From Eledone cirrhosa (taxonomy: Eukaryota): 64,000 nucleotides of DNA. The DNA lies in assembly GCA_964016885.1 (NCBI GenBank), contig OZ024759.1, positions 17,298,001 through 17,362,000 of the forward strand. Direction: 5' to 3'. The notes under the pieces are model-generated. The model searched no databases, was not told the DNA's origin, and saw nothing but the letters and a program-made list of their open reading frames with translations. The translations under genes and the position numbers were made by a program. Positions within the stretch are counted from its first letter, which is position 1, and every line of letters starts with the position of its first letter. Of this stretch, positions 16,006 through 51,898 are shown piece by piece.

Positions 16006-19000
16006 ATATCTAATCTTCACACTCTTTATTAGTTTATCTAACTAGGATCGAATGTGATATGAATCTGGCTAGCATAGAGTTAGGCGCTTTACGGTCTGAG
16101 TTCAAATCCTGCCGAGATTAACTTTGCCTTTCATCCTTACGGGGTCGATAAAATAAAGTACCAGTAATACACTGGTATAATTGCTGGCCTTGTGCCAAAA
16201 GTAGAAATAATTATTTCTAACATCGATGTCAACCTGTTACATCATACAATGTAATTTTTTTTTCCAAGATAGTAGATGTAATGTGATGGGATTGTGGCTG
16301 TTATTTCCAACATCGATGTCAACCTATTATAGGACATCTGACAATAAAATACATATAGTGACCTCTGGTGGCTAACTTGTCACCTAAAGATGTAAACAGA
16401 AAAATGTTACCGTATTTGTTTCGTTATTATCCTGAGTTCAAATCCCGCCGAGGTTAACTTTGCCTTTCATCCTTACGCGGTAGATAAAATAAAGTACCAG
16501 TAATGCACTGGGTATTTGCTGGCCCTGTGCCAAAAGTAGAAACAGTTATTAGCCTGTCTATTTTATTTTCAGACTTAGTAAATATAGAACCGCATTATTG
16601 CATATGTTCTCTTTATTTCACAACTTAAGATTTAATTTGAGGAAAACTTGGCTGTTATTTTTTGCAATTTAAGCAGGTATATTGATGTTCGATACAAATC
16701 CATATACGTACTGACGGCGAGATTCTTATCTTCATTGGAGGCTCGCCTAACCGAGGTAACTGGTGATGCTCGTGATCTAACCCTGGCTCTCCTGCCTGTT
16801 GGTTTTGTTCGTAAAGTCTGTCCAGCGATTCTTTGCTGCGACATTCTAACCACATGCTCGCAATATTGGAGCAATGATCACCCAATTCGGAGGAGAGACT
16901 CTCTGATCTCCGAGTAACATATTCTATCGTGTAACCTTACGCCAAAATCCTTCGGAGAAATCCCATTTTGGCCGCTTGTCTTCGCCATCGTATTCTCTGT
17001 CATTAAACAAGATTCATGGGTAGTATTAAAATTCTGTTATAACAAGAAAAGTATTAACAGAAAACGATAAAAATGTCCAAAGCAATAACTGCTGTTGGTG
17101 TTTGCACGAGTAATCATTGTTTAAGAAATGTCTCCTCTCATAGGCAATATTTATTTATTTATATTTTATATGTATATGTTGTCAAGAGAATATTTGTATT
17201 TAAAGACAAACATATGTTCGACTTCAACTATTGACCTGTTTCAGAAATACATCATCCGATGTCTTTGTTTTTTGCTGTGACCTCTGATGCCTAACTTGAC
17301 CATTAAAGATGTAAACACAAATATTTCCACGAATTTGTTTCGTTATTATCTTGTCTTATTTATTTTCAGACTGAGTAAATATAGAACCACATTATCTAAT
17401 TTATTTCACAACATAAGACAAACATCTGTTCAACATCAGCTATTGACCTATTTCAGAAATACATCATCCAATGTGTTGTTATTAATGTGATGTGGATTTG
17501 GTGGTTATTTCTAACAACTGCAATAACTTGTTATAGGACAACTGACAATAAAATACATGTCGTGACCTCTGGTGGCTGAATTATCATGATGTAAAGATAG
17601 CAGTAAGAAAGATAACTCTTTGACCTAGGATTTCTTTATGCTATTTGGTTGTTGTTTCTAGCAGAAAAATTCAACTTGTTATAGGACAGTTGACAATAAA
17701 ATACATGTAGTGACCTCTGGTGCCTAACTTGACAACTAAAGATGTAAACAAAGATGTTTTGCCGTATTTGTTTCGTTATTACCTGTCTTATTTTTTCTGA
17801 CTTAGTAAATATAGAACCACATTATTTCCTATGTTCTCTTTATTTCAAGACTTAAGGTGTAATTTGAGGAAAGTTTGGCTGCTATTTCCTCAAATGCCAG
17901 TGACCTGTTGGATGCCTCATTCGCTGTTCGATAGAAATACATATACAATAGATAACTGATGGTTAGTCCCAGGTCAGCCCTGATAGAGGAGTTATTCGAT
18001 ATAAAACATTTCAGTGATAGCCAAGTCTCCTTATTTTCAGACATAGCTTACGTAGATCTACATCATCCAATGTGTCCCAGTTTTTCAAGATCATAGAGTA
18101 ATCATTTAGTAGAGATAGTAGCATGCAGAAGGACAACGTGTAACAAAATATATATAATGACCACTTGTGGCCAAATTGGCATCACATAGACACAGAAAAG
18201 AAAATAATAACCACACATAGTGTATATAGAATGAAATTATCCACTATGTCCGTTTATTTCAAGAAGATACCATGAAGTTTGAGGAATTTAAGTTACGAGG
18301 CAGATGTCTTCTTGTTTAGTCTCAGATCAACTCTGAAACATACGACTAAAAATATTTCATTGTTACCCAAGCCAACTTGGTTTCAAATAAAGTTTATATA
18401 GAGTGTTGGCCACCCGCAGACATCAGTCCTGAGAGTTGGAATGACTATTTCAATAGGTCCTCCTCGTTATCCCACGAGGTGATACATTCTCTATTCTATC
18501 GCTTGAAACAATGAGAAGGCTTGCACCTGTGGTTTTGTAAGTGGGAGAGCCCTCCCACACATTGTCCAGACATGTACCAGTGGTCTGGCGATGGTGGTGG
18601 TCTGTATATTATTCTAAGTTTTATTAAAACAATTCTGTTATGTTTACTGTCTGTTGTGAAACTTGTACAGTTAACGGCGACAAGAATAGCATTGATAGAC
18701 AAGTATGAATATGTCCAAAGTAATAACTACTGTCGGATCTATTAAACTCGAGGAACTGCCCCCCCCCCCCCCCCCCCCCCGTAGCAGATACAAAATATGC
18801 AGTGTGGAAATGCCTCAACAGACTAAGATCTGGTGTTAGATGTGTTAAATCTTATAAAAGGGGGATATTTAGAGGATGGGAACGTTCTGTGAGACTGTGG
18901 CATCGAACCACAAACTACGCAGCACCTTTTGATATACCCCCCGTTGGAAGACGTCTCCACAACATTGGACTGACTTCGCAGAGTTTAATGAGAAAAGCGA

Positions 19001-20499
19001 ACAATGTGTTCAGCTGTGGCAGAACCACATCTAGCCAAGCGTTTTAACTGACACTCTTGTGGGCACGATATTTGAGAAATGTCACCTCTCGCAGACGTTC
19101 TAAATTACATTTTATATGTATATGTTGTCAAGAAAATATTTTTATTTAAAGATGGCCCGCAAGTCAAACCTCAGCTATTGACCTATTTCAGAAATAAATC
19201 ATTCGACGTGTCTTTGTTATTCAAGATAATAGGATGTAATTTGAAGAGGGTTTGGTGGTTATCTCTAACAACTGTAACAACCTGTTATAGGACAACTGAC
19301 AATAAAATACATGTCATGACCTCTGGTGGCTGGATCATCATTATGAAAACATAACATCAAGAAAGATAACTCTTTGACCTAGGATCTTTTTATGCTATTT
19401 GGTTGTTGTTTCTAGCAGAAAAATTCAACTTGTTATAGGACAGTTGACAATGAAATACATGTAGTGACCTCTGGTGCCTAACTTGACAACTAAAGATGTA
19501 AACAAAGATGTTTTGCCGTATTTGTTTCGTTATTACCTGTCTTATTTTTCTGACTTAGTTAATATAGAACCACGTTATTTCCTATGTTCTCTTTATTTCA
19601 AGACTTAAGGTGTAATTTGAGGAAAGTTTGGCTGCTATTTCCTCAAATGCCAGTGACCTGTTGGATGCCTCATTCGCTGTTCGATAGAAATACATATACA
19701 ATAGATAACTGATGTTTAGTCCCAGGTCAGCCCTGATAGAGGAGTTATTCGATATAAAACATTTCAGTGATAGCCAAGTCTCCTTATTTTCAGACAAAGC
19801 TTACGTAGATCTACATCATCCAATGTGTCCCAGTTTTTCAAGATCATAGAGTAATCATTTAGTAGAGATAGTAGCATGCAGAAGGACAACGTGTAACAAA
19901 ATATATATAATGACCACTTGTGGCCAAATTGGCATCACATGAACACAGAAAAGAAAATAATAACCACACGTAGTGTATATAGAACGAAATTATCCACTAT
20001 GTCATTTTATTTCAAGAAGATACCATGAAGTTTGAGGAATTTAAGTTACGAGGCAGATGTCTTCTCCTTGATTAGTCTCAGATCAACTCTGAAACATACG
20101 ATAAAAATATTTCATTGGTTACCCAAGCCAACTTGGTTTCAAATAAAGTTTATATAGAGTGTTGGCCACCCGCAGACATCAGTCCTGAGAGTTGGAATGA
20201 CTATTTCAATAGGTCCTCCTCGTTATCCCACGAGGTGATACATTCTCTATTCTATCGCTTGAAACAATGAGAAGGCTTGCACCTGTGGTTTTGTAAGTGG
20301 GAGAGCCCTCCCACACATTGTCCAGACATGTACCAGTGGTCTGGCGATGGTGGTGGTCTGTATATTATTCTAAGTTTTATTAAAACAATTCTGTTATGTT
20401 TACTGTCTGTTGTGACACTTGTACAGTTAACGGCGACAAGAATAGCATTGATAGACAAGTATGAATATGTCCAAAGTAATAACTACTGTCGGATCTATT

Positions 20500-20843
20500 A
20501 ACCTCCCATCTGTAACAACAATTGAGCTAAAGGCGAGCGAGGAACTGCCCCCCGTAGCAGATACAAACTATGCAGTGTGGGGATGCCTCAACAGACTAAG
20601 ATATGGTATTAGATGTGTTAAATTTTGTAAAATGGGGATATTTAAAGGATGGGAACGTTCTGTGTGACTGTGGCATCCAACCACAGATTATGCAGCACCT
20701 TCTGATATACCCCCTGTTGGAAGACCCCATCCACAACATTGGACTGACTTCGCAGAGTTTAATGAGAAAAGCGAACAATGTGTTCAGCTGTGGCAGAACC
20801 ACATCTAGCCAAGCGTTTTAACTGACACTCTTGTGGACACGAC
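20500..20843 (+). mobile_element. 3' fragment of a non-LTR retrotransposon embedded in the full-length macrosatellite units (representative copy)
   Basis: Frameshifted WxCLNRLRSGV..LVKWGYLKDGNVLCDCGIEPQTTQHLLIxPLL resembles the Cys/His C-terminus of Ingi/Vingi- or RTEX-type LINE ORFs; clade assignment uncertain. Confidence 0.7.
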
Positions 20844-23800
20844 ATTTGAGAAATGTCACCTCTCGCAGACGTTCTAAATTACATTTTATATGTATATGTT
20901 GTCAAGAAAATATTTTTATTTAAAGATGGCCCGCAAGTCAAACCTCAGCTATTGACCTATTTCAGAAATAAATCATTCGATGTGTCTTTGTTATTCAAGA
21001 TAATAGGATGTAATCTGATGTGGATTTGGTGGTTATTTCTAACAACTGTAACAACCTGTTATAGGAAAACTGACAATAAATACATGTCATGACCTCTGGT
21101 GGCTGGATCATCATTATGAAAACATAACATCAAGAAAGATAACTCTTTGACCTAGGATTTCTTTATGCTATTTGGTTGTTATTTCTAGCAGAAAAATTCA
21201 ACTTGTTATAGGACAGTTGACAATAAAATACATGTAGTGACCTCTGGTGGCTAACTTGACAACTAAAGATGTAAACAAAGATGTTTTGCCGTATTTGTTT
21301 CGTTATTATCCTGTCTTATTTTTTCTGACTTAGTAAATATAAGACCACATTATTTCCTATGTTCTCTTTATTTCAAGACTTAAGGTGTAATTTGAGGAAA
21401 GTTTGGCTGCTATTTCCTCAAATTCCAGTGACCTGTTCGATGCCTCATTCGCTGTTCGATAGAAATACATATACAATAGATAACTGATGTTTAGTCCCAG
21501 GTCAGCCCTGATAGAGGAGATATTCGATATAAAACATTTCAGTGATAGCCAAGTCTCCTTAGTTTCAGACATAGCTTACGTAGATCTAGATCATCCAATG
21601 TGTCCTAGTTTTGCAAGATCATAGAGTAATTATTTAATAGAGATAGCAACATGCAGAAGGACAACGGCTAACAAAATATATATAATGACCACTTGTGGCC
21701 AAATTGGCATCACCTGAACACAGAAAAGAAAATAATAACCACACATAGTGTATATAGAACGAAATTATCCACTATGTCCTTTTATTTCAAGAAGATACCA
21801 TGAAGTTTGAGGAATTTAAGTTACGAGGCAGATGTCTTCTCCTTGTTTAGTCTCAGATCAACTCTGAAACATACGACTAAAAACATTTCATTGTTACCCA
21901 AGCCAACTTGGTTTCAAATAAATTTTATACAGAGTGTTGGCCACCCGCAGACATCAGTCCTGAGAGTTGGAATGACTATTTCAACAGGTCCTACTCGTTA
22001 TCCCACGAGGTGATACATTCTCCTTCCTATTGCTTGAAACAATGAGAAGGCTTGCACCTGTGGTTCTGTAACTGGGAGAGACCTCCCACACATTGTCCAG
22101 ACATGTACCAGTGGTCTGGCGATGGTGGTGGTCTGTATATTATTATAGGTTTTATTAAAACAATTCTGTTATGTTTACTGTCTGTTGTGACACTTGTACA
22201 GTTAACCGCGACAAGAAAAGCATTGATAGACAAGTATGAATATGTCCAAAGTAATAACTACTGTCGGATCTATTAACCTCCCATCTGTAACAACAATGGA
22301 GCTAAAGGCGAGCGAGGAACTGCACCCCGTAGCAAATACAAACTGTGCAGTGTGGAAATGCCTCAACAGACTAAGATCTGGTGTTAGACGTGTTAAATCT
22401 TGTAAAAGTGGGATATTTAAAGGATGGGAACGTTCTGTGTGACTGGGCATCGAACCACAGACTACGCAGCACCTTTTGATATACCCCTGTTGGAACACCC
22501 CTCCACAACATTGGACTGACTTCGCAGAGTTTAATGAGAAAAGCGAACAATGTGTTCAGCTGTGGCAGAACCACATCTAGCCAGGCGTTTTAACTGACAC
22601 TCTTGTGGACACGACATTTGAGAAATGTCACCTCTCGCAGACGTTCTAAATTAAATTTTATATGTATATGTTGTCAAGAAAATATTTTTATTTAAAGATG
22701 GCCCGCAAGACAAACATCTGTTCGACCTCAGCTATTGACCTATTTCAGAAATAAATCATTCGACGTGTCTTTGTTATTCAAGATAATAGGATGTAACTTG
22801 ATGTGGATTTGGTGGTTATCTCTAACAACTGTAACAACCTGTTATAGGACAACTGACAATAAAATACATGTCATGACCTCTGGTGGCTGGATCATCATTA
22901 TGAAAACATAACATCAAGAAAGATAACTCTTTGACCTAGGATCTTTTTATGCTACTTCGTTGTTGTCTCTAGCAGAAAAATTCAACTTGTTATAGGACAG
23001 TTGACGATAAAATACATGTAGTGACCTCTGGTGCCTAACTTGACAACTAAAGATGTAAACAAAGATGTGTTGCCGTACTTGTTTCGTTATTACCTGTCTT
23101 ATTTTTTCTGACTTAGTTAATATAGAACCACATTATTTCCTATGTTCTCTTTATTTCAAGACTTAAGGAGTAATTTGAGGAAAGTTTGGCTGCTATTTCC
23201 TCAAATTCCAGTGACCTGTTGGATGCCTCATTCGCTGTTCGCTAGAAATACATATACAATAGATAACTGATGTTTAGTCCCAGGTCAGCCCTGATAGAGG
23301 AGATATTCGATATAAAACATTTCAGTGATAGCCAAGTCTCCTTATTTTCAGACAAAGCTTACGTAGATCTACATCATCCAATGTGTCCCAGTTTTTCAAG
23401 ATAATAGAGTAATATTTTAGTAGAGATAGCAACATGCAGAAGGTCAACGGCTAACAAAATATATATAATGACCACTTGTGGCCAAATTGGCATCACCTGA
23501 ACACAGAAAAGAAAATAATAACCACACATAGTGTATATAAAACGAAATTATCCACTATGTCCTTTTATTTCAAGAAGATACCATGAAGTTTGAGGAATTT
23601 AAGTTACGAGGCAGATGTCTTCTCCTTGTTTAGTCTCAGATCAACTCTGAAACATACGATAAAAATATTTCATTGTTACCCAAGCCAACTTGGTTTCAAA
23701 TAAAGTTTATATAGAGTGTTGGCCACCCGCAGACATCACTTCTGAGAGTTGGAATGACTATTTCAACAGGTCCTCCTCGTTACCCCACGAGGTGATACAT

Positions 23801-25265
23801 TCTCCATTCTATCGCTTGAAACAATGAGAAGGCTTGCATCTGTAGTTCTGTAACTGGGAGAGCCCTCTCACACATTGTCCAGACACGTACCATTGGTCTG
23901 GCGATGGTGGTGGTCTGTATATTATTCTAAGTTTTATTAAAACAATTCTGTTATGTTTACTGTCTGTTGTGACACTTGTACAGTTAACAGCGACAAGAAA
24001 AGCATTGATAGACAAGTATGAATATGTCCAAAGTAATAACTACTGTCGGATCTATTAACCTCCCATCTGTAACAACAATTGAGCTAAAGGCGAGCGAGGA
24101 ACTGCCCCCCCCCCCCCCCCCCGTAGCAGATACAAACTGTGCAGCGTGGAAATGCCTCAACAGACTAAGATCTGGTGTTAGATGTGCTAAATCTTATAAA
24201 AGTGGGATATTTAAAGGATGGGGACGTTCAGTGAGACTGTGGCATCGAACCACAGACTACGCAGCACCTTTTGATATACCCCCTGTTGGAAGACCTCTCC
24301 ACAACATTGGACTGACTTGGCAGAGTTTAATGACAAAAGCGAACAATGTGTTCAGCTGTGGCAGAACCACATCTAGCCAAGCGTTTTAACTGACACTCTT
24401 GTGGATACAATATTTGAGAAATGTCACCTCTCGCAGACGTTCTAAATTAGATTTTATATGTATATGTTGTCAAGAAAATATATTTTTATTTAAAGATGGC
24501 CCGCAAGTCAAACATCTGTTCGAATTCAGCTATTGACCTATTTCAGAAATAAATCATTCGATGTGTCTTTGTTATTCAAGATAATAGGATGTAATCTGAT
24601 GTGGATTTGGTGGTTATTTCTAACAACTGTAACAACCTGTTATAGGACAACTGACAATAAATACATGTCATGACCTCTGGTGGCTGAATTATCATTATGA
24701 AAACATAACATCAAGAAAGATAACTCTTTGACCTAGGATCTTTTAATGCTATTTGGTTGTTGTTTCTAGCAGAAAAATTCAACTTGTTATAAAACAGTTG
24801 ACAATAAAATACATGTAGTGACCTCTGGTGCCTAACTTGACAACTAAAGATGTAAACAAAGATGTTTTGCCGTATTTGTTTCGTTATTACCTGTCTTATT
24901 TTTTCTGACTTAGTTAATATAGAACCACATTATTTCCTATGTTCTCTTTATTTCAAGACTTAAGGAGTAATTTGAGGAAAGTTTGGCTGCTATTTCCTCA
25001 AATTCCAGTGACCTGTTCGATGCCTCATTCGCTGTTCGATAGAAATACATATACAATAGATAACTGATGTTTAGTCCCAGGTCAGCCCTGATAGAGGAGA
25101 TATTCGATATAAAACATTTCAGTGATAGCCAAGACTCCTTATTTTCAGTCAAAGCTTACGTAGATCTACATCATCCAATGTGTCCCAGTTTTTCAAGATA
25201 ATAGAGTAATATTTTAGTAGAGATAGCAACATGCAGAAGGACAACGGCTAACAAAATATATATAA

Positions 25266-25327
25266 CAAGGGCGGTGCCCCAGCATGGCCTCAGCCGGATG
25301 GCTGAAACAGGTAAAAGAGTAAAAGAG
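25266..25327 (+). mobile_element. 5'-truncated SINE 3' end inserted into one unit, TATAA target-site duplication
   Basis: GGGCGGTGCCCCAGCATGGCC...GGCTGAAACAGGTAAAAGAGTAAAAGAG is absent from all other units; flanked by TATAA at 25261-25265 and 25328-25332. Confidence 0.8.
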
Positions 25328-28300
25328 TATAATGACCACTTGTGGCCAAATTGGCATCACATGAACACAGAAAAGAAAATAATAATCACACATAGTGTAT
25401 ATAGAACGAAATTATCCACTATGTCCTTTTATTTCAAGAAGATACCTTGAAGTTTGAGGAATTTAAGTTACGAGGCAGATGTCTTCTCCTTGTTTAGTCT
25501 CAGATCAACTCTGAAACATACGATAAAAATATTTCATTGTTACCCAAGCCAACTTGGTTTCAAATAAAGTTTATATAGAGTGTTGGCCACCCGCAGACAT
25601 CAGTCCTGAGAGTTGGAATGACTATTTCAACAGGTCCTCCTCGTTATCCCAAGAGGTGATACATTCTCCATTCTATCGCTTGAAACAATGAGAAGGCTTG
25701 CATCTGTGGTTCTGTAACTGGGAGAGACCTCCCACACATTGTCCAGACACGTACCAGTGGTCTGGCGATGGTGGTGGTCTGTATATTATTCTAAGTTTTA
25801 TTAAAACAATTCTGTTATGTTTACTGTCTGTGACACTCGTACAGTTAACGGCGACAAGAAAAGCATTGATAGACAAGTATGAATATGTCCAAAGTAATAA
25901 CTACTGTCGGATCTATTAACCTCCCATCTGTAACAACAATTGAGCTAAAGGCGAGCGAGGAACTGCCCCCCGTAGCAGATACAAACTATGCAGTGTGGGG
26001 ATGCCTCAACAGACTAAGATATGGTATTAGATGTGTTAAATTTTGTAAAATGGGGATATTTAAAGGATGGGAACGTTCTGTGTGACTGTGGCATCCAACC
26101 ACAGATTATGCAGCACCTTCTGATATACCCCCTGTTGGAAGACCCCATCCACAACATTGGACTGACTTCGCAGAGTTTAATGAGAAAAGCGAACAATGTG
26201 TTCAGCTGTGGCAGAACCACATCTAGCCAAGCGTTTTAACTGACACTCTTGTGGACACGACATTTGAGAAATGTCACCTCTCGCAGACGTTCTAAATTAC
26301 ATTTTATATGTATATGTTGTCAAGAAAATATTTTTATTTAAATATGGGCTGCAAGTCAAATATCTGTTCGAATTCAGCTATTGACCTATTTCAGAAATAA
26401 ATCATTCGGTGTGTCTTTGTTATTCAAGTTAATAGGATGTAATCTGATGTGGATTTGGTGATTATTTCTAACAACTGTAACAACCTGTTATAGGACAACT
26501 GACAATAAAATACATGTCATGACCTCTGGTGGCTGGATCATCATTATGAAAACATAACATCAAGAAAGATAACTCTTTGACCTAGGATTTCTTTATGCTA
26601 TTTGGTTGTTATTTCTAGCAGAAAAATTCAACTTGTTATAGGACAGTTGACAATAAAATACATGTAGTGACCTCTGGTGCCTAACTTGACAACTAAAGAT
26701 GTAAACAAAGATGTGTTGCCGTACTTGTTTCGTTATTACCTGTCTTATTTTTTCTGACTTAGTAAATATAGAACCACATTATTTCCTATGTTCTCTTTAT
26801 TTCAAGACTTAAGGTGTAATTTGAGGAAAGTTTGGCTGCTTTTCCTCAAATTCCAGTGACCTGTTGGATGCCTCATTCGCTGTTCGATAGAAATACATAT
26901 ACAATAGATAACTGATGGTTAGTCCCAGGTCAGCCCTGATAGAGGAGATATATGATATAAAACATTTCAGTGATAGCCAAGTCTCCTAATTTTCAGACAA
27001 AGCTTACGTAGATCTACATCATCCAATGTGTCCCAGTTTTTCAAGATAATAGAGTAATATTTTAGTAGAGATAGCAACATGCAGAAGGTCAACGGCTAAC
27101 AAAATATATATAATGACCACTTGTGGCCAAATTGGCATCACCTGAACACAGAAAATAAAATAATAACCACACATAGTGTATATAGAATGAAATTATCCAC
27201 TATGTACTTTTATTTCCAGAAGATACCATGAAGTTTGAGGAATTTAAGTTACGAGGCAGATGTCTTCTCCTTGTTTAGTCTCAGATTAACTCTGAAACAT
27301 ACGACTAAAACATTTCATTGTTACCCAAGCCAACTTGGTTTCAAATAAAGATGGCCCGCAAGTCAAACATCTGTTCGACCTCAGCTATTGACCTATTTCA
27401 GAAATAAATCATTCGACGTGTCTTTGTTATTCAAGATAATAGGATGTAATTTGATGTGGATTTGGTGGTTATTTCTAACAACTGTAACAACCTGTTATAG
27501 GACAACTGACAATAAAATACATGTCGTGACCTCTGGTGGCCGGATCATCATCATGAAAACATAACATCAAGAAAGATAACTCTTTGACCTAGGATCTTTT
27601 TATGCTATTTGTTTGTTGTTTCTAGCAGATAAATTCAACTTGTTATAGGACAGTTGACAATAAAATACATGTAGTGACCTCTGGTGGCTAACTTGGCAAC
27701 TAAAGATGTAAACAAAGACATTTTGCCGTATTTGTTTCGTTATTATCCTGTCTTAATTTTTAGACTTATTAAATATAGAACCACAATACCTCATATATGT
27801 TCTCTTTACTTCATGATCTAAAGTGTAATTTGAAAAAGATTTGGATATTATTTCTTCCAATTTCTGTGACCAGATCGATGTCTCACTCGCTATTCGATAA
27901 AAATACATATACAATAGATAACTTTTGTTTTGTCCCAGATCAGCCCTGGTTGAGGAGACATACGATATAAAACATTTCAGTGATAACCAAACGCCCTTAT
28001 TTTCAAACATATCTTACATAGATCTACATCAACCAATGTGACCTTGTTTTTCAAGATAGTAGGGTGTAATATTATGTGTATTGGGCTACTATTTCTGGCA
28101 GAGGTAGAAACCTAATAAAGGACTACGGTTAACAAATTCCTTATAACAACCATTAGTGGCCCAATTGTCATCACCCGATGACAAAAAGTATCAAAAGAAG
28201 TCCGAGGAAACCTGATGAGAGACATTCCAATCGTGATCATCCTTTCTTTTATTGTCAGACATAGTGTACATAGAAGAAGCTAATCTAATATGTTCTTTAT

Positions 28301-28398
28301 TTCAAGACAATAAGGTGTAATTTGAGGAATATTCTAAGTTTTATTAGGATTACACTTTAGGGGAATATGTATATATATATATATACATATATATACAT

Positions 28399-28484
<86 letters not shown>

Positions 28485-29656
28485 AGAGAGAGGGGGGGGG
28501 GGGTTGAACCAGGTGTGTAGTTTAAGGTGGTTTGACATTAAAAAGCATTAGAACACTACCCAAGAGTAGAGTGGATACCTCAGGAATGCACCTTTTATTA
28601 ATTTCACAGAAAGGGCGAAAGCTCCATATTCCCATTTCTTTAATAGATGTAGACACTTTTGGAACTCTTCACAACGAATCTCTTCTTATACCTGCAAGAG
28701 AGGTGGGGACAGAGTCCTCAAGCACCTTCAAACAGGTCTTGTCAAAACCAACCATCTCCAATTGATCTGGCTGGAGCTCCAAGCAAGACCAGCAGAGGTC
28801 ATAGATGTTATCCAGCCATCTTGCTCAGAGTCAATCCATGGGTCTGCTGCCAGTTGGTTTTTGCCCTTAAAATCTGCCCAGTTATTTTTTTCTTAGACAT
28901 TCTAAACACATGTATGTAGTATGGGGGCTGCAATATCTTAATTTGGAGAACTAGTGGCTCTACTTAGAGTGACTCTCTGATCTTCAAGCTAGACACTATA
29001 TTGAGTAATGTTACTCTAAAGACCATTCAGAGGAACTCTATTTCAGTTGTTTGTACTAGTATCATGTAACCCAGTACAACCTGCTTCATGGTTGAATGGT
29101 CAGCAACTAAACTAGCTCACCCGTTAGACCCTGGCCTGGTGATAAGAGTAGGAGGAACCAAAGCAACACAAAAAACAAGAGCTGTTAAAAGATGCAGATG
29201 AACTTGTCAGATCAACGGTCATCCACCCCAACTATGAGTTAAATAGCCTCACCAACCCACAATTAACCAAGTGTGGTGAGTATGGCTACACCCTTGACAT
29301 GGCTAAAACCAAATAGAAAGTGGTGGAGGTCAACCAGGAAGGGGTTCCTCCAACAAAAGTGGGAAGGCCCTGGATTAGATTGGAACCATACTATAACTGT
29401 GTATTAACATTAATTCTATCCCAGACTTGTTAATTGTTCACTCTATTTCTGTGTCCATTTCTGCAGTGTCATCATCAGCAGTACATATGTTATAGGATGC
29501 TAATGTTCCAAAGGCAGTGAATGAGCAGAGTTGTTAGAAAGTTGGGTAGAATTTTTATGGTATCATTTTGGCTCTCTATTCTCTGAGTTCAAATCCTACC
29601 AAGGTCAATAAAAAAAGTATCAGACTAGTACTGGGGTCAATTTTTCCACCTTACAT

Positions 29657-29736
<80 letters not shown>

Positions 29737-29751
29737 AACAACAAAGAGGGT

Positions 29752-29946
29752 GTGGTAAGATACCAGGTGGAGCATAATGCACCAGAGTACTCAATAATTA
29801 GGAAATTAGGATAGTAGAGTGGGCAATTGGAAAAGAGTCAAGACCCTGAAGGCTGAGCTCCAGCCATTTTGACAGCTAGATCTGATCTAGTTCAGATCTA
29901 GCTGTCGAAACGGCTGGAGCTCAGCCATCAGGGTCTTGACTCTTTT

Positions 29947-29948
<2 letters not shown>
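29752..29948. mobile_element. Short repeat ending in a ~120 bp hairpin (29829-29948), Penelope-like end; relatives at 15230-15335 and 56643-56825
   Basis: Shared GAGTACTCTGGTGC.TTATG.TCCA.CTGG.. and CCCTGATGGC.GAGCTC.AGCCGTTTCGAC; flanked by (TA)n. Confidence 0.6.
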
Positions 29949-29986
<38 letters not shown>

Positions 29987-38200: not shown

Positions 38201-41200
38201 ATGATGTATTTCTGAAACAAGTAAATAGTTGAGGTCGAACAGATGTTTGTCTTGCGGGCCATCTTTAAATAAAAATATTTTCTTGTCAACATATACATAT
38301 AAAATATAATTTAGAACGTGTGCGAGAGGCGACATTTCTCAAATATCGTGTCCACAAGACTGTCAGTTAAAAGGCTTGGTTAGATGTGGTTCTGCCACAG
38401 CTGAACACATTGCTCTCTTTTCTCATTAAACTCTGCCGAGTCAGTCCAATGTTATGGAGGGGTCTTCCAACAGGGGGTATATCTGAAGGTGCTGCGTAGT
38501 CTGTGGTTCGATACCACAGTCATACACAACGCTCCCGTCCTTTAAATATCCCCATTTTACAAGATTTAACTTTAACACATCCAACACCAGATCTTAGGCT
38601 GTTGAGGCATCCCCACACTGCACAGTTTCTATCTGCTACGGGGGGCAGTTCATCGCTCGCCTTTAGCTCCATTGTTGTTACAGATGGAAGGTTAATAGAT
38701 CGACCGTAGTTATTACTTTGGACATACTGCTACTTTTCTTGTCACCGTTAACTGTACAAGTGTCACAACAGACAGTAAACATAACAGAATTGTTTTAATA
38801 ATATACAGGCCACCACCATCGCCAGACCACTGGTACATGTCTGGACAATGTGTGGGAGGGCTCTCCCAGTTACAGAACCACAGGTGCAAGCCTTCTCATT
38901 GTTTCAAGCGATAGGATGGAGAATGTAGTACCTCGTGGGATAACGAGAAGGACCTGTTGAAATAGTCATTCCAACTCGTAGGACTGATGTCTGCGGGTGG
39001 CCAACACTCTATATAAACTTTATTTGAAACCAAGTTGGCTTGGGTAACCGCGAAATGTTTTTTTGTCCTATGTTTCCTGTTCAAAGTTGATCTGAGACTA
39101 AACAACGAGGAGAAATCTACATGGCAACTTAAAATCATCAAACTTCATGGTATCTTCTTGAAATAAAAGGACATAGTGGATAATTTCGTTCTATATACAC
39201 TATTTGTTGTTACTATTTTCTTTTCTGTCTTCAGGTGATGACAATTAAGCCACAAGTGGTCATTATATGTATTTTGTTAGCCGTTGTCCTTCTGCATGTT
39301 GCTATCTCTGCTAAAATATTACTCTTCTATCTTGAAAAACTAGGACAAATTGGATTATGTAGTTCTATGTAAGCTATGTCTGAAAATAAGGAGACTTGGC
39401 TATCACTGAAATGTTTCATATCGTATTTCTCCTCTATCAGGGCTGACCTGGGACTAAACATCAGTTATCTATTGTATATGTATTTCTATCGAACAGCGAA
39501 TGAGGTATCTACCAGGTCACTGGAATTTGAGGATATAGCAGCCAAACTTTCCTCAAATTACACCTGAAGTCTTGAAATAAAAAGAACATATATGAGGTAT
39601 TGTGGTTCTATATTTACTAAATCAGAAAAAATAAGACAGGATAATAACGAAACAAATACGGCAATACAACTTTGTTTACATCTTTAGTTGTCAAGTTAGC
39701 CACCAGAGGTCACTACATGGATTATATTGTCAACTGTCTTATAACAAGTTGAATTTTTCTGCTAGAAAGAACAACCAAATAGCATTAAAAAATCCTAGGT
39801 CAAAGAGTTATCTTTCTTGATGTTATGTTTTCATAATGATGATCCAGCCACCAGAGGTCACGACATGTATTTTATCGTCAGTTGTCCTATAACAGGTTAT
39901 TATAGTTAGAAATAACAACTAAATCCACATCAAATTACATGGTACTATCTTGAAAAATAACAACACATTGGATGATGTATTTCTGAAACAAGTAAATAGT
40001 TGAGGTCGAACAGATGTTTGTCTTGCGGGCCATCTTTAAATAAAAATATTTTCTTGTCAACATATACATATAAAATATAATTTAGAACGTGTGCGAGAGG
40101 CGACATTTCTCAAATATCGTGTCCACAAGAGTGTCAGTTAAAAGGCTTGGCTAGATGTGGTTCTGCCACAGCTGAACACATTGCTCTCTTTTCTCATTAA
40201 ACTCTGCCGAGTCAGTCCAATGTTATGGAGGGGTCTTCCAACAGGGGGTATATCAGAAGGTGCTGCGTAGTCTGTGGTTCGATGCCACGGTCATACACAA
40301 CATTCCCGTCTTTTAAATATCCCCATTTTACAAGATTAACTTTAACACATCCAACACCAGATCTTAGTCTGTTGAGGCATCCCCACACTGAACAGTTTGT
40401 ATCTGCTACGGGGGGCAGTTCATCGCTCGCCTTTAGCTCCATTGTTGCTACAGATGGGAGGTTAATAGATCCGACAGTAGTTATTACTTTGGACATATTC
40501 ATATTTGTCTATCAATGCTTTTCTTGTCGCCGTTAACTGTACAAGTGTCACAACAGACAGTAAACATAACAGAATTGTTTTAATAAAACTTAGAATAATA
40601 TACAGACCACCACCATCGCCAGACCACTGGTACATGTCTGGACAATGTGTGGGAGGGCTCTCCCAGTTACAGAACCACAGGTGCAAGCCTTCTCATTATT
40701 TCAAGCGATAGGATGGAGAATGTATTACCTCGTGGGATAACGAGGAGGACCTGTTGAAATAGTCATTCCAACTCTTAGGACTGATGTCTGCGGGTGGCCA
40801 ACACTCTATATAAACTTTATTTGAAACCAAGTTGGCTTGGGTAACCGCGAAATGTTTTTTTGTCCTATGTTTCCTGTTCGAAGTTGATCTGAGACTAAAC
40901 AACGAGGAGAAATCTACATGGCAACTTAAAATCATCAAACTTCATGGTATCTTCTTGAAATAAAAGGACATAGTGGATAATTTCGTTCTATATACACTAT
41001 GTGTTGTTACTATTTTCTTTTCTATATTCAGGTGATGACAATTAAGCCACAACTGGTCATTATTTGTATTTTGTTACACGTTGTCCTTCTGCATGTTGCT
41101 ATCTCTGCTAAAATATTACTCTTCTATCTTGAAAAACTAGGACAAATTGGATTATGTAGTTCTATGTAAGCTATGTCTGAAAATAAGGAGACTTGGGTAT

Positions 41201-44200
41201 CACTGAAATGTTTCATATCGTATTTCTCCTCTATCAGGGCTGACCTGGGACTAAACATCAGTTATCTATTGTATATGTATTTCTATCGAACAGCGAATGA
41301 GGTATCTACCAGGTCACTGGAATTTGAGGATATAGCAGCCAAACTTTCCCCAAATTACACCTGAAGTCTGGAAATAAAAAGAACATATATGAGGTATTGT
41401 GGTTCTATATTTACTAAGTCAGAAAAAATAAGACAGGATAATAACGAAACAAATACGGCAATACATCTTTGTTTACATCTTTAGTTGTCAAGTTAGCCAC
41501 CAGAGGTCACTACATGGATTTTATTGTCCACTGTCTTATAACAAGTTGAATTTTTCTGCTAGAAAGAACAACCAAATAGCATTAAAAAATCCTAGGTCAA
41601 AGAGTTATCTTTCTTGATGTTATGTTTTCATAATGATGATCCAGCCACCAGAGGTCATGACATGTATTTTATTGTCAGTTGTCCTATAACAGGTTATTAT
41701 AGTTAGAAATAACAACTAAATCCACATCAAATTACATGGTACTATCTTGAAAAATAACAACACATTGGATGATGTATTTCTGAAACATGTGAATAGTTGA
41801 GGTCGAACAGATGTTTGTCTTGAGCGTTATCCTTTAAATAAAAATATTTTCTTGACAACATATACATATAAAATATAATTTGGAACGTGTGCGAGTGGCG
41901 ACATTTCTCAGATATCGTGTCCACAAGACTGTCAGTTAAAAAGCTTGGCTAGATGTGGTTCTGCCACAGCTGAACACATTGCTCTCTTTTCTCATTAAAC
42001 TCTGCCAAGTCAGTCCAATGTTGTGGAGGTATATCCAAACAGGGGGTATATCAAAAGGTGCTGCGTAGTCTGTGGTTCGATGCCACAGACACACAGAACG
42101 TTCCCATCCTTTAAATATCCCCATTTTACAAGATTTCACACATCCAACTCCAGATCTTAGTCTGTTGAGGCATCCCCACACTGAACAGTTTGTATCTGCT
42201 ACGGGGGGCAGTTCCTCGCTCGCCTTTAGCTCCATTGTTGCTACAGATGGGAGGTTAATAGATCCGACAGTAGTTATTACTTTGGACATATTCATACTTG
42301 TCTACCAATGCTTTTCTTGTCGCCGTTAACTGTACAAGTGTCACAACAGACAGTAAACATAACAGAATTGTTTTAATAAAACTTTGAATAATATACAGAC
42401 CACCACCATCGCCAGACCACTGGTACATGTCTGGACAATGTGTGGGAGGGCTCTCCCAGTTACAGAACCACAGGTGCAAGCCTTCTCATTGTTTCAAGCG
42501 ATAGGATGGAGAATGTAGTACCTCGTGGGATAACGAGAAGGACCTGTTGAAATAGTCATTCCAACTCTCAGGACTGATGTCTGCGGGTGGCCAACACTCT
42601 ATATAAACTTTATTTGAAACCAAGTTGGCTTGGGTAATCGCGAAATGTTTTTTTGTCCTATGTTTCCTGTTCAAAGTTGATCTGAGACTAAACAACGAGG
42701 AGAAATCTACCTGGCAACTTAAAATCATCAAACCTCATGGTATCTTCTTGAAATAAAAGAACATAGTGGATAATTTCGTTCTATATACAATATGTGTTGT
42801 TACTATTTTCTTTTCTATATTCAGGTGATGACAATTAAGCCACAAGTGGTCATTATATGTATTTTGTTAGCCGTTGTCCTTCTGCATGTTGCTATCTCTG
42901 CTAAAATATTACTCTTCTATCTTGAAAAACTAGGACAAATTGGATTATGTAGTTCTATGTAAGCTATGTCGGAAAATAAGGAGACTTGGGTATCACTGAA
43001 ATGTTTCATATCGTATTTCTCCTCTATCAGGGCTGACCTGGGACTAAACATCAGTTATCTATTGTATATGTATTTCTATCGAACAGCGAATGAGGTATCT
43101 ATCAGGTCACTGGAATTTGAGGATATAGCAGCCAAACTTTCCTCAAATTACACCTGAAGTCTTGAAATAAAAAGAACATATATGAGGTATTGTGGTTCTA
43201 TATTTACTAAGTCAGAAAAAATAAGACAGGATAATAACGAAACAAATACGGCAATACATCTTTAGTTGTCAAGTTAGCCACAAGAGGTCACTACATGGAT
43301 TTTATTGTCAACTGTCCTATAACAAGTTGAATTTTTCTGCTAGAAAGAACAACCAAATAGCATTAAAAAATCCTAGGTCAAAGAGTTATCTTTCTTGATG
43401 TTATGTTTTCATAATGATGATCCAGCCACCAGAGGTCACGACATGTATTTTATTGTCAGTTGTCCAATAACAGGTTATTATAGTTAGAAATAACAACTAA
43501 ATCCACATCAAATTACATGGTACTATCTTGAAAAATAACAACACATTGGATGATGTATTTCTGAAACAAGTAAATAGTTGAGGTCGAACAGATGTTTGTC
43601 TTGCGGGCCATCTTTAAATAAAAATATTTTCTTGTCAACATATACATATAAAATATAATTTAGAACGTGTGCGAGAGGCGACATTTCTCAAATATCGTGT
43701 CCACAAGACTGTCAGTTAAAAGGCTTGGTTAGATGTGGTTCTGCCACAGCTGAACACATTGCTCTCTTTTCTCATTAAACTCTGCCGAGTCAGTCCAATG
43801 TTATGGAGGGGTCTTCCAACAGGGGGTATATCTGAAGGTGCTGCGTAGTCTGTGGTTCGATACCACAGTCATACACAACGCTCCCGTCCTTTAAATATCC
43901 CCATTTTACAAGATTTAACTTTAACACATCCAACACCAGATCTTAGGCTGTTGAGGCATCCCCACACTGCACAGTTTCTATCTGCTACGGGGGGCAGTTC
44001 ATCGCTCGCCTTTAGCTCCATTGTTGTTACAGATGGAAGGTTAATAGATCGACCGTAGTTATTACTTTGGACATACTGCTACTTTTCTTGTCACCGTTAA
44101 CTGTACAAGTGTCACAACAGACAGTAAACATAACAGAATTGTTTTAATAATATACAGGCCACCACCATCGCCAGACCACTGGTACATGTCTGGACAATGT

Positions 44201-47200
44201 GTGGGAGGGCTCTCCCAGTTACAGAACCACAGGTGCAAGCCTTCTCATTGTTTCAAGCGATAGGATGGAGAATGTAGTACCTCGTGGGATAACGAGAAGG
44301 ACCTGTTGAAATAGTCATTCCAACTCGTAGGACTGATGTCTGCGGGTGGCCAACACTCTATATAAACTTTATTTGAAACCAAGTTGGCTTGGGTAACCGC
44401 GAAATGTTTTTTTGTCCTATGTTTCCTGTTCAAAGTTGATCTGAGACTAAACAACGAGGAGAAATCTACATGGCAACTTAAAATCATCAAACTTCATGGT
44501 ATCTTCTTGAAATAAAAGGACATAGTGGATAATTTCGTTCTATATACACTATTTGTTGTTACTATTTTCTTTTCTGTCTTCAGGTGATGACAATTAAGCC
44601 ACAAGTGGTCATTATATGTATTTTGTTAGCCGTTGTCCTTCTGCATGTTGCTATCTCTGCTAAAATATTACTCTTCTATCTTGAAAAACTAGGACAAATT
44701 GGATTATGTAGTTCTATGTAAGCTATGTCTGAAAATAAGGAGACTTGGCTATCACTGAAATGTTTCATATCGTATTTCTCCTCTATCAGGGCTGACCTGG
44801 GACTAAACATCAGTTATCTATTGTATATGTATTTCTATCGAACAGCGAATGAGGTATCTACCAGGTCACTGGAATTTGAGGATATAGCAGCCAAACTTTC
44901 CTCAAATTACACCTGAAGTCTTGAAATAAAAAGAACATATATGAGGTATTGTGGTTCTATATTTACTAAATCAGAAAAAATAAGACAGGATAATAACGAA
45001 ACAAATACGGCAATACAACTTTGTTTACATCTTTAGTTGTCAAGTTAGCCACCAGAGGTCACTACATGGATTATATTGTCAACTGTCTTATAACAAGTTG
45101 AATTTTTCTGCTAGAAAGAACAACCAAATAGCATTAAAAAATCCTAGGTCAAAGAGTTATCTTTCTTGATGTTATGTTTTCATAATGATGATCCAGCCAC
45201 CAGAGGTCACGACATGTATTTTATCGTCAGTTGTCCTATAACAGGTTATTATAGTTAGAAATAACAACTAAATCCACATCAAATTACATGGTACTATCTT
45301 GAAAAATAACAACACATTGGATGATGTATTTCTGAAACAAGTAAATAGTTGAGGTCGAACAGATGTTTGTCTTGCGGGCCATCTTTAAATAAAAATATTT
45401 TCTTGTCAACATATACATATAAAATATAATTTAGAACGTGTGCGAGAGGCGACATTTCTCAAATATCGTGTCCACAAGAGTGTCAGTTAAAAGGCTTGGC
45501 TAGATGTGGTTCTGCCACAGCTGAACACATTGCTCTCTTTTCTCATTAAACTCTGCCGAGTCAGTCCAATGTTATGGAGGGGTCTTCCAACAGGGGGTAT
45601 ATCAGAAGGTGCTGCGTAGTCTGTGGTTCGATGCCACGGTCATACACAACATTCCCGTCTTTTAAATATCCCCATTTTACAAGATTAACTTTAACACATC
45701 CAACACCAGATCTTAGTCTGTTGAGGCATCCCCACACTGAACAGTTTGTATCTGCTACGGGGGGCAGTTCATCGCTCGCCTTTAGCTCCATTGTTGCTAC
45801 AGATGGGAGGTTAATAGATCCGACAGTAGTTATTACTTTGGACATATTCATATTTGTCTATCAATGCTTTTCTTGTCGCCGTTAACTGTACAAGTGTCAC
45901 AACAGACAGTAAACATAACAGAATTGTTTTAATAAAACTTAGAATAATATACAGACCACCACCATCGCCAGACCACTGGTACATGTCTGGACAATGTGTG
46001 GGAGGGCTCTCCCAGTTACAGAACCACAGGTGCAAGCCTTCTCATTATTTCAAGCGATAGGATGGAGAATGTATTACCTCGTGGGATAACGAGGAGGACC
46101 TGTTGAAATAGTCATTCCAACTCTTAGGACTGATGTCTGCGGGTGGCCAACACTCTATATAAACTTTATTTGAAACCAAGTTGGCTTGGGTAACCGCGAA
46201 ATGTTTTTTTGTCCTATGTTTCCTGTTCGAAGTTGATCTGAGACTAAACAACGAGGAGAAATCTACATGGCAACTTAAAATCATCAAACTTCATGGTATC
46301 TTCTTGAAATAAAAGGACATAGTGGATAATTTCGTTCTATATACACTATGTGTTGTTACTATTTTCTTTTCTATATTCAGGTGATGACAATTAAGCCACA
46401 ACTGGTCATTATTTGTATTTTGTTACACGTTGTCCTTCTGCATGTTGCTATCTCTGCTAAAATATTACTCTTCTATCTTGAAAAACTAGGACAAATTGGA
46501 TTATGTAGTTCTATGTAAGCTATGTCTGAAAATAAGGAGACTTGGGTATCACTGAAATGTTTCATATCGTATTTCTCCTCTATCAGGGCTGACCTGGGAC
46601 TAAACATCAGTTATCTATTGTATATGTATTTCTATCGAACAGCGAATGAGGTATCTACCAGGTCACTGGAATTTGAGGATATAGCAGCCAAACTTTCCCC
46701 AAATTACACCTGAAGTCTGGAAATAAAAAGAACATATATGAGGTATTGTGGTTCTATATTTACTAAGTCAGAAAAAATAAGACAGGATAATAACGAAACA
46801 AATACGGCAATACATCTTTGTTTACATCTTTAGTTGTCAAGTTAGCCACCAGAGGTCACTACATGGATTTTATTGTCCACTGTCTTATAACAAGTTGAAT
46901 TTTTCTGCTAGAAAGAACAACCAAATAGCATTAAAAAATCCTAGGTCAAAGAGTTATCTTTCTTGATGTTATGTTTTCATAATGATGATCCAGCCACCAG
47001 AGGTCACGACATGTAATTTATTGTCAGTTGTCCTTGAAAAATAACAACACATTGGCTGATGTATTTCTGAAACAGGTCAATAGTTGAGTTCGTATTTGTC
47101 TTGAGGGTTATCCTTTAAATAAAAATATTTTCTTGACAACATATACTATACATATAAAATATGAATGAGTATTCTCTGCGAGAGGTAACATTTCTCAAAT

Positions 47201-49620
47201 AATGGATAGATCGACAGTAGTTATTGCTTTGGACATATTCATAGTTTTCCATCAATACTTTTCTTGTCATCATCAACTGTACATGGGTCACAGCCCGCGG
47301 TAAACAAAAGTATTCTTTAAATAAAACTCAGATCACCACCATCGCTAGCCCAGTGGTACATATCTGGACAATGTGTGGGAAATCTCCCCGTGGTACAGAA
47401 ACCCAGGTGCAAGCCTTCTCGTTGTTTCAAGGGACAGAATGGAGAATCTATTACCCCGTGGGATAACGAGGAGGACGTGTTGAAATAGTCATTCAAACTC
47501 GCAAGACTGATGATATCTGCGGGTGGCCAACACCCTATATAAACTTTATTTGAAACCAAGGTGGTTTGGGTAACAGTGAAATATTTTAGTCGTATGTTCC
47601 CCCTATTAGAGTTGACCCGAGACTAAACAACGAGGAGACATCTACTTGGTCACTTCAATTGGAAGAAGGGACTGCGACTTCATGGTATCTTCATGAAATT
47701 GAAAGGATATATTGGATAATTTCATTCTATATACACTTCGTGGTTTTTATTTTGTCTTCAGATTATGACAATTAGGCCACAAGTGGTCATTATATGTATT
47801 TTCTTGGCCGTCGTCCTTTCACTCGTTGCTCTTTATACGAGAAATAGTAGCTAAATAAACTTCATATTGCACTCTACTATCTTGAAAAACAAGGACCCTT
47901 TAGATGATGCAGATTTATGTAAGTTAAATGTTTTATATCGTATATCTGTCTCCTCAATCAGGGCCGACCTGGTACTAAACATCAGCTATCTATTGTGTGA
48001 GGCATCTACTTGGTCACTGAAATTAGAAGAAATAGCTGCCAAATCTTCTTCAAATTACATCTTAAATCTTGAAATAAAGAAAACATGAGAAAATATCGTT
48101 TTGTATTTACTAAGTCAGAAGGAAAATAAGACAAAACAAATACGCCAAAATATTTTTGTTTACATCTTTAGGTGAGAAGTTAGCCACCAGAGGTCACTAC
48201 ATGTATTTTATTGTCAGTTGTCCTATAACAGGTTGACTTCGATGTTAGAAATAACAGCTACAATCAAATCACATTACATCCTACTATCTTGAATAAGAAA
48301 GACACATCGGATGATGTTTTTCTGAAACAGGTCAATAGTTGAGGTCAAACAGATATTGGTATTGTGGACTATCTTTAAATATAAATATTTTCATGACTAC
48401 AATATAAGTATAAAATATGAGTATTGTCTGGAAGATCTACTTATGGATAGATCAACAGTAGTTATTGCTTGGGACATCTTCATGTTCCATTAATAATTTT
48501 CGTTTCATAACAAAATTGTTTAAATAAAACTGAGAATAATATACAGATCCCCACCATCACTACCCCAGTGTTACATATCTGTAATTGAACCCTAGGTGTA
48601 AATTGTCTCGTAGTCCCAGCAAACTGAATTCGTAATGTGTTACCCTACATAAGCTTTATCTGAACACAAAGTGACTTGGGTAACAATGAAATGTTTGTTT
48701 CCTCCATCACAGTTGTTCTGGGACAAAATAACGATGAGACATCTACCTGGTCACTTAAATTGGAAGAAATAACAGCAAGATCTTCCACAAATTAAACTGT
48801 ATTTTCTTGAAATGAAGAGAACATATTGGATAATTCTAATCTATACGCAATGTTTGAGGTTTTTTGTTATTTATTATTTATTTATTTATCTTCAGGTGAT
48901 AACAATTGAGCCACTAGTGGTCACTTTATATATTTTGTTAGCCGTTATACTTTAGCTTGTTGCCCTCTCTGCTAGAAGTAGTAGCTAAATTCAAATTAAA
49001 CCCTACTATCTTGAAAAACTGAGACACATTGGTTGATGTAGTTCTATGTTAGCTATGTGTGAAAATAACGAGGCTTGGTCATCACTGAAATGTTTTATAT
49101 CGTATATCTCCTCAATCAGGGCTGATCTGGGACTAAACATCAGCTATCTATTCGTATATGTATTTTTATCGAATAGCGAGAGAGGTCACTGAAATTGGAA
49201 GAAATACCAGTTAAATTTTCCTCAAATTTACCCCTTAAGTCTTGAGATAAAGAGAACATAGGAAATAAAGTGGTTCTATATTTACTAAGTCTGAAAATAA
49301 ATAAGACAGGATAATAACGAAACAAATTCGTTAAAATATTTGTTTACATCTTTAGGTATCAAGTTAGCCACCAGAGGTCACTACATGTATTTTATTGTCA
49401 ACTGTCCTATAACAAGTTGAATTTATCTGCTAGAAACAACAACCAAATAGCATAAAGAAATCCTAGGTCAAAGAGTTATCTTTCTTGATGTTATCTTTTC
49501 ATCATAATTCAGCCACCAGAGGTCACTACATGTATTTTATTGTCAGTTGTCCTATAACAGGTTGCTCCCTTTGCCAGAAACAGTAGCCAATTTCATTTCG
49601 TATTACATCCTACTATCTGG
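32280..49620 (-). repeat. Right arm of the same macrosatellite in inverted orientation: ~8 units with degenerate margins
   Basis: Reverse-complement copies; unit marker at 34048, 35812, 37605, 39376, 41173, 42966, 44725, 46522 (spacing 1759-1797). Confidence 0.95.
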
Positions 49621-51082: not shown

Positions 51083-51226
<144 letters not shown>

Positions 51227-51254
51227 TCATTGATTATTAATAATAGCAATAATA

Positions 51255-51640: not shown

Positions 51641-51688
51641 AACTTAAAATATATCAATTGCAGGTATTACAATAATCTACCATCTTAC

Positions 51689-51884: not shown

Positions 51885-51898
51885 CTGAAATTAATTAA

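Follow-up and report, generated by a model that had tools for sequence, protein, structure and literature searches.

The window analysed here, a stretch of 64,000 nucleotides from Eledone cirrhosa (contig OZ024759.1), contains a kilobase-scale tandem array between the 3′ end of POLR2B and the promoter of HPSE (Table 1). Both genes had been named in a preliminary description of the sequence, and both are confirmed by exon matches at the protein level. The POLR2B exon at 53939–54160 matches RPB2 with an E-value of 1.8e-42, and the HPSE exon at 13886–14068 matches a heparanase of the PDB at 1.5e-8; exon 1 of HPSE gave no match among 61 candidates in a protein search.

Table 1. Features of the array and its neighbours (window coordinates)
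Feature	Position	Strand	Remarks
HPSE, first two coding exons	13886–14808	−	transcribed away from the array
Left arm	16238–28345	−	5 full 1.78-kb units and one partial; edge monomers old and diverged; 23 left-pointing motifs (15 strong)
Outermost left motif	16358–16372	−	old monomer; 21.6 bits; ~1.55 kb upstream of the HPSE start codon
67-bp insertion	25266–25332		single unit; at the 3′ end of its type-A motif
Spacer (2.9 kb)	28346–31245		(AT)n tracts, fragments of dispersed repeats, and a dispersed palindrome of 126 bp; array monomers absent
Right arm	31246–49654	+	7 full 1.78-kb units and one partial; edge monomers old and diverged; 33 right-pointing motifs (23 strong)
Innermost right motif	31254–31268	+	20.6 bits, a strong match to CTCF; in an old, diverged monomer
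Recent 5.35-kb (three-unit) duplication	35837–47006	+	repeat copies of ~5.8 kb that differ by 1 substitution and a single 12-bp indel
Representative unit	39190–40986	+	motifs of type A (weak) at 39249, type B (strong) at 39699 and type C (strong) at 39847 (B and C 148 bp apart); LINE fragment; remainder older sub-repeats
Non-LTR retrotransposon 3′ fragment	40080–40456	−	antisense to the unit; same place in 12 units, both arms
Outermost right motif	49512–49526	+	old monomer; 21.8 bits
POLR2B, last coding exons	51083–54160	−	transcribed towards the array

The arms share a 15-bp motif, of which a pattern scan allowing up to three mismatches finds 56 copies, 23 on the minus strand left of the spacer and 33 on the plus strand to its right. 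With at most two mismatches the counts are 22 and 33, and the exact pattern occurs 16 times on the minus strand (16358–27688) and 29 times on the plus strand (31254–49526). Neither the pattern scans nor a CTCF matrix scan at p ≤ 1e-4 detects a reverse-oriented copy inside either arm, and old as well as young copies keep the outward polarity. The earlier manual count of about 23 and 33 copies with none in the opposite orientation is thus reproduced, and the two 19-mers it quoted, at 48181 and 49365, are both present. The spacer holds one unrelated plus-strand match (at most two mismatches) at 28788.

The arms contain full units, 12 in all and 1751–1864 bp long, which are 95–100% identical within arms and 90–93% identical between them. 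Each carries three motifs, at offsets 59, 509, and 657, and tandem periods of 148 bp, ~450 bp, 1.78 kb (the unit with its LINE fragment), and 5.35 kb are nested within one another. The two arms have been homogenised separately, with 60 fixed differences in 1357 columns, and the array is homogeneous at its centre and diverged at its ends. A profile built from the downstream flank alone recovers no full-length monomer lacking the motif, except one split by an insertion. All copies descend from one ancestral motif, probably through nested tandem duplication and a single inversion. The number of copies is a consequence of duplication, so that the 56 are not independent signals, and the inversion would likewise account for the opposite polarities of the arms. 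The near-identical 5.35-kb duplication may be either a real expansion or an assembly duplicate.

The LINE fragment is absent from both old edge copies inspected. It has 182 homologs in an exhaustive protein search, with RVT_1 lying upstream in two of the eight homologs scanned; a word-indexed protein search returned no match among 21 candidates. Protein alignment of six open frames from the unit gave no match among 2792 candidates. Pfam families were found in none of seven open frames out of eight, and the eighth, which lies outside the array, had two sub-threshold matches. A 72-codon open frame was considered as a coding origin and rejected, having no third-position excess and carrying frameshifting indels. 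As for a known structured RNA such as a snoRNA, miRNA, or snRNA, no Rfam family matched at gathering score. No stable hairpin was seen at the motif block; of 114 folding windows tried in one unit, the best five fall outside the motifs or upstream on the opposite strand. Part of the unit may derive from an octopus SINE tail; all 19 matches to it fall inside the arms. In a search of sequencing runs, three of six rows among the matches listed contain the stretch; they come from one study and one organism, possibly the source of the assembly, and the matches listed include no RNA dataset and no second species.

Matches to CTCF were scored with an approximate matrix. On this matrix 38 of the 56 copies reach 15.7–22.4 bits (p ≤ 1.5e-6), and the other 18, of which 17 are of type A and one is truncated, stay at or below 11.4 bits. 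Each unit holds two strong matches and one weak one. The preliminary description had counted three motifs per ~1.78-kb unit; three are present, one of them, type A, decayed. Since duplication explains the copy number, the relevant chance null is a single unit, and only one of 2000 dinucleotide shuffles of a 1.8-kb unit reached the observed best score on this approximate matrix. The same description had feared that a G-to-T change in the core would weaken the CTCF assignment. According to PMC10484683, T:A at core position 11 is bound by human CTCF only two-fold more weakly than G:C, and T is the best-tolerated change there. Judged by the human finger specificities given there, the 15-bp cores of types B and C fit fingers ZF7 to ZF3 triplet by triplet. 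The assignment to CTCF thus emerges stronger than it was first put, also because old cores are better kept than their flanks. The CTCF of squid has 11 fingers, and motifs resembling its site occur at squid TAD boundaries; CTCF-like motifs also lie at loop anchors in three coleoids.

Constraint on the motif differs between old and young copies, all of them paralogs within one locus. In the old edge copies (n = 16) the core changes at a rate of 0.40 against 0.71–0.92 in the flanks, a ratio of 0.43–0.56 (LRT p 0.054–0.002; column permutation p 0.035–0.071). Without two truncated copies the ratio is 0.32 (p ≤ 3e-4) and the core is the second-slowest of 102 15-base windows; re-adding them weakened the signal to 0.43. 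In the young monomers (n = 26) the ratio of core to near flank is 0.90–1.16, and in young units 7 of 57 motif columns vary, against 196 of 1300 others (p 0.71). Pooling all 40 distinct monomers gives 0.64–0.69 (p 0.03–0.09, flank-only tree), or 0.90 when G/C content is matched (p 0.66). These values carry the qualification that the split into old and young was chosen after the pooled test and that gene conversion violates the tree model. The monomer set comprised 47 of the 56 copies, 40 of them distinct, omitting three truncated or interrupted ones and six from the recent duplication, and the unit comparisons omitted three near-identical units of that duplication. A ratio of 0.10 for old type-B and type-C copies is partly circular and was not relied on. 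A motif mutating as fast as its flank, which the preliminary description had named as refuting a CTCF super-boundary, is what the young copies of the recent expansion present, but not the old edge copies.

The shape of the conserved block is not that of a CTCF site, as the core is no slower than the 15 bases that follow it (p 0.36) and the block spans ~28 bp. Ranked against windows from the entire unit, the cores of the three motifs fall within the lowest 12%, 36%, and 53%.

The explanation that best accommodates these observations, held tentatively and at a little under even confidence, is a locus-specific macrosatellite of two inverted arms in which one ancestral CTCF-type motif was copied 56 times. 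The 38 strong copies likely bind CTCF densely and would form a local insulator or a cohesin-stopping cluster between the two genes. A motif-bearing monomer of ~450 bp may first have duplicated in tandem, after which one inversion would have set the polarities of the arms. Unequal exchange probably later carried the LINE-bearing 1.78-kb unit through the central part of each arm, leaving old monomers at all four arm ends. Fingers 7 to 3 of CTCF would read the 15-bp core. Constraint would have acted at a small number of old sites, and the majority of young copies would be redundant, carried along as passengers when the array expanded. Selection need not be invoked for the outward polarity.

Satellites can be heterochromatic, and the motif may instead be a passenger, a once-used site or a chance look-alike of CTCF, in an array of silent chromatin without effective binding. 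This is possible, though rather unlikely. It agrees with the lack of constraint on the motif in young units, the decay of 17 type-A copies (one of them struck by an insertion), the LINE fragment in the unit, and a polarity that a single two-way event can produce. Nor are the core substitutions biased towards mild ones: the 13 distinct changes, scored on the approximate matrix, are no milder than expected at random (P 0.37), and damaging variants have reached five and eight copies. However, a match this strong is rare among shuffled units, old cores change at about half the flank rate, and of the 12 old B/C-like copies at the edges, 11 have kept a score of at least 20 bits on the approximate matrix.

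The preliminary description had gone further and proposed a super-boundary. Here the divergent arms would be a selected, orientation-dependent device that stops cohesin from both sides and splits two large domains. The geometry resembles that of the mouse Tfap2c–Bmp7 transition zone and the synthetic STITCH, where blocking is strongest with divergent arrays and grows with the number of sites, and outward polarity is common to old and young copies. Yet one inversion explains that polarity, young copies are unconstrained, a third of the sites have decayed, and the unit lacks GC/CpG richness of the DXZ4 kind. In echinoderms and flies CTCF sites follow no orientation pattern at boundaries, squid data do not resolve CTCF directionality, and the only neighbours visible within the window are the 3′ end of a housekeeping gene and one promoter. 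A selected super-boundary is therefore not supported and appears improbable. Equally improbable is its fullest form, a naturally evolved STITCH in which dozens of outward CTCF sites in an invertebrate macrosatellite form a selected cohesin barrier, with vertebrate-style extrusion blocking in a spiralian and a strength tuned by copy number.

Conservation beyond the core would also follow if the 28-bp block were the 3′ end of a 31–34-nt micro-exon with its splice donor, belonging either to a repetitive gene that has decayed or to a non-coding transcript across the array. GT stands at +20 in 38 of 56 copies and YAG upstream in 32, and in one frame pN/pS is 0.29 over the first seven codons and 1.70 just downstream. 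Nevertheless, only 20 of 56 copies have both splice signals, three of 12 deep copies have in-frame stops, and the longer open frame has no third-position excess, homologs, or Pfam family and suffers frameshifting indels. The pN/pS values rest on few independent events, a stop-ridden antisense frame gives 0.21, and the triplet tolerance of CTCF predicts the same periodicity, which leaves the micro-exon very improbable. Most doubtful is a different binder, either a lineage-specific zinc-finger protein of the C2H2 class, a gene family that has expanded in octopus, or a nuclear receptor recognising AGGTCA; the block does extend past the CTCF core and each unit has six AGGTCA-like half-sites, but these, judged by eye, are not arranged as regular direct or inverted repeats, the GCCAC half, superfluous for a receptor, is among the least-changed columns, and the whole 15-mer fits CTCF triplet by triplet on the published human specificities.

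For the role of CTCF site orientation in folding outside vertebrates, this locus would offer a natural test. Its 33 kb present 15 strong sites in one orientation and 23 in the opposite one, about the strongest natural input one could wish for. If the sites are bound, as the favoured reading of a CTCF-binding macrosatellite would have it, tandem amplification and inversion would have built a divergent CTCF cluster from one site. Titles and opening abstract text in the open-access literature yielded no report of a mollusc array of this kind.

Several known systems share parts of this architecture. Foldback-type transposons have long modular inverted arms and, like this locus, inverted arms of tandem repeats around a spacer. 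A foldback element was rejected here, as the outer ends are not mirror images, a target-site duplication was not detected, and the spacer has no transposase-length frame. Higher-order satellite arrays under concerted evolution likewise have a homogeneous centre, diverged ends, arm-specific variants, and nested periods. In contrast to them, this array is small and intergenic, with two inverted arms and a monomer bearing a strong transcription-factor motif. In the Tfap2c–Bmp7 transition zone and STITCH, binding and blocking were measured in mammalian cells at few sites (L1–L4, R1–R3), whereas the 56 predicted sites here are paralogs that arose by tandem duplication.

Closest in design are DXZ4/Dxz4, ICCE, and FIRRE of the mammalian X, which are also locus-specific kilobase-scale tandem arrays with CTCF motifs in each unit; no sequence relation to them is claimed. 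In that class a YY1 motif adjoins the CTCF motif; here a crude pattern for YY1 finds nine matches in the arms, all more than 150 bp from a core. The unit here is AT-rich, with a GC content of 0.37, equal to the rest of the window, and a CpG observed/expected ratio of 0.53–0.55 (0.41 outside), and it includes a LINE fragment, unlike the GC/CpG-rich units of those arrays. The CTCF sites of Dxz4 share one polarity (PMC6985041), as do those within each arm here, and conservation in ICCE and DXZ4 extends past the core motif (PMC6125249), as the ~28-bp block does here. Felid DXZ4 consists of two arrays around a spacer (PMC8662614). What sets the present array apart from these systems is that its arms are inverted copies of the same unit with outward polarity.

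The repeat array, two inverted arms around a spacer, separates HPSE from POLR2B, as the preliminary description had it. Its neighbors are the HPSE start on one side and the POLR2B end on the other, and both genes are encoded on the minus strand. Its 15-bp CTCF-like motif (the core) occurs in exact form 16 times on the minus strand left of the spacer and 29 times on the plus strand to the right. With up to three mismatches, the same pattern search gives 23 and 33 copies in the arms, in agreement with the counts first proposed. Neither this search nor a CTCF matrix scan found a reversed motif inside either arm, as had also been claimed. Both the motif and its arrangement are confirmed.

Positions in the window of the array and neighboring features
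Feature	Position	Remark
Left arm	16238-28345	
Spacer	28346-31245	
Right arm	31246-49654	
LINE fragment	40080-40456	example copy
Minisatellite, 87 bp	55454-56421	POLR2B side, in an intron
Minisatellite, 54 bp	59409-59808	POLR2B side
Minisatellite, 72 bp	60825-61314	POLR2B side
(CCA)n tract, 1 kb	3178-4236	HPSE side

The 12 full units, 1751-1864 bp long, group into arm-specific clades, with 95-100% identity inside an arm and 90-93% across arms. Each contains the three expected motifs: type-A, type-B 450 bp on, and type-C another 148 bp on. These types are paralogs inside older sub-repeats of 60-80% identity (sensitive self-comparison), which means that all 56 copies derive from one ancestral site. 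Diverged old monomers, 62-88% identical to the center, occupy all four arm ends. A motif-bearing monomer would have duplicated in tandem and undergone a single inversion, with a LINE-bearing unit spreading later through both arms. Given tandem duplication and one inversion, the count and polarity amount to one motif and one event rather than 56 observations, and the array structure is ordinary satellite evolution. A near-exact ~5.8-kb repeat in the right arm (one substitution and one 12-bp indel; nine motifs) either arose by very recent expansion or is a duplicate made in assembly. Among 18 windows, between-arm divergence is lowest around type-C (unit offsets 600-700, e.g., 39790-39890; 2.2%, 0 fixed differences) and highest directly afterwards (17.8%, 15 fixed), which may be a sign of inter-arm conversion or of constraint on the type-C site. 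A 126-bp palindrome near the spacer middle (29826-29951; 92% self-inverted) resembles a MITE and has a relative at 56632-56826. In the interval from the right arm to the 3′ end of POLR2B lies a short GC-rich patch with GGCGGCGG (49940-50000), a possible promoter or 5′ exon for a transcript not yet annotated.

In every full unit, some 370 bp come from a non-LTR retrotransposon: a 3′ fragment lying antisense, with 182 homologs (reverse transcriptase upstream in two of eight scanned). It sits at an identical position in 12 units across both arms, and neither of two old edge copies examined has it. Within arms, the LINE part diverges by 5.9-7.2% versus 2.4-3.3% for the remaining unit; singletons are twice as frequent (45/323 versus 98/1357 columns, p = 2e-4), and differences fixed between arms number 5/323 versus 60/1357. 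Homogenization seems to have bypassed this piece, or the remaining unit is constrained as a whole. Named members of its closest homolog clusters (P0001, P0008) are the fishes Pogonophryne and Aldrovandia (53-63% identity to the fragment), which may hint at a retroelement family common to marine animals.

Judged by score, the motif matches the CTCF site strongly. On a JASPAR-type matrix, 15.7-22.4 bits (p ≤ 1.5e-6) are reached by 38 of the 56 copies, 15 in the left arm and 23 in the right; the 17 type-A copies and a truncated one reach at most 11.4. The best score on this matrix was attained by 1 of 2000 dinucleotide shuffles of one unit. Isolated weaker matches outside the monomer family (12.7-16.6 bits) lie at 28786 (+), 31865 (+), 8276 (-), and 60827 (-), those at 28786 and 8276 within copies of one dispersed repeat. 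The most likely reading, held tentatively, is that the strong copies would bind CTCF and, once bound, act as a dense local insulator or as a stop for cohesin.

A neutral, unbound satellite is a somewhat unlikely alternative, on which motif constraint bears. In nine non-redundant young (central) units, variation affects 7 of 57 motif columns versus 196 of 1300 others (p = 0.71). Across 40 distinct monomers, the core/flank rate ratio is 0.64-0.69 on a flank-only tree (p = 0.03-0.09), 0.43-0.46 on trees including the core, and 0.90 for G/C columns alone. Searching with a profile of the flank alone turned up the motif in every full-length monomer, bar one that an insertion has split; having the motif was thus no condition for entering the set. 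With monomers split post hoc by age, the ratio is 0.32 in 14 old edge monomers (p ≤ 3e-4; core second slowest among 102 windows) and 0.90-1.16 against the near flank in 26 young ones. Including two truncated copies (16 old monomers) gives 0.43-0.56 (LRT p = 0.002-0.054; permutation p = 0.035-0.071). Relative to the 15 bases that follow it, the core shows no lower rate (p = 0.36). On the scale of the full unit, 25/207 core positions differ in old copies versus 900/5023 elsewhere, these counts being non-independent; by window rank, the three cores stand within the lowest 12%, 36%, and 53%. By matrix score, the 13 distinct core substitutions are no milder than random (P = 0.37), and 8 and 5 copies carry variants that lower the score by 4.5-5.2 bits. 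A few old sites are probably constrained; the redundant young sites are read as unconstrained.

The macrosatellite super-boundary proposed earlier finds partial support, in that its CTCF match is strong (38/56 copies). Its polarity, however, reflects one event and its young copies lack constraint, and a selected, orientation-dependent boundary is improbable. A micro-exon or array-spanning transcript is more doubtful still: pN/pS is 0.29 across seven codons, but both splice signals occur in just 20/56 copies and stops interrupt 3 of 12 deep copies. A structured RNA (for the array), a protein-coding unit, and a foldback element were tested and ruled out. Slimmest is the chance that another zinc-finger protein or a nuclear receptor is the binder. 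The G-to-T substitution first held against CTCF falls at core position 11, contacted by Lys365 of finger 4, where the measured affinity of human ZF1-7 is best for G:C, 2-fold lower for T:A, 7-fold for A:T, and >54-fold for C:G (PMC10484683). Because T:A costs only twofold in the human protein, this objection is weak if the finger is conserved in this species; in squid, the protein has the full set of 11 fingers, which are described as relatively conserved (PMC9023564).

DXZ4, ICCE, and FIRRE are described as tandem kb-scale units with CTCF motifs of one polarity (PMC6985041, PMC6125249, PMC8662614). At most, the array shares with them kb-scale tandem units and same-polarity CTCF-like motifs per arm. 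It is not counted as a member of that group: unlike them, it is AT-rich and no YY1-like site adjoins its motif. Judging from literature listings, no mollusc report of such an array was found. Cephalopod evidence for CTCF consists of the enrichment of its motif at boundaries and at loop anchors (PMC9023564, PMC13652810), CTCF directionality was not identified in squid (PMC10658182), and echinoderm and fly boundaries have no CTCF orientation pattern (PMC13317027). The array geometry, as read from sequence, is that of the mouse Tfap2c-Bmp7 transition zone and the synthetic insulator cassette STITCH, for which divergent arrays are reported to block most strongly (PMC6137755, PMC7200164). The locus offers a direct test of whether CTCF function depends on orientation in spiralians.
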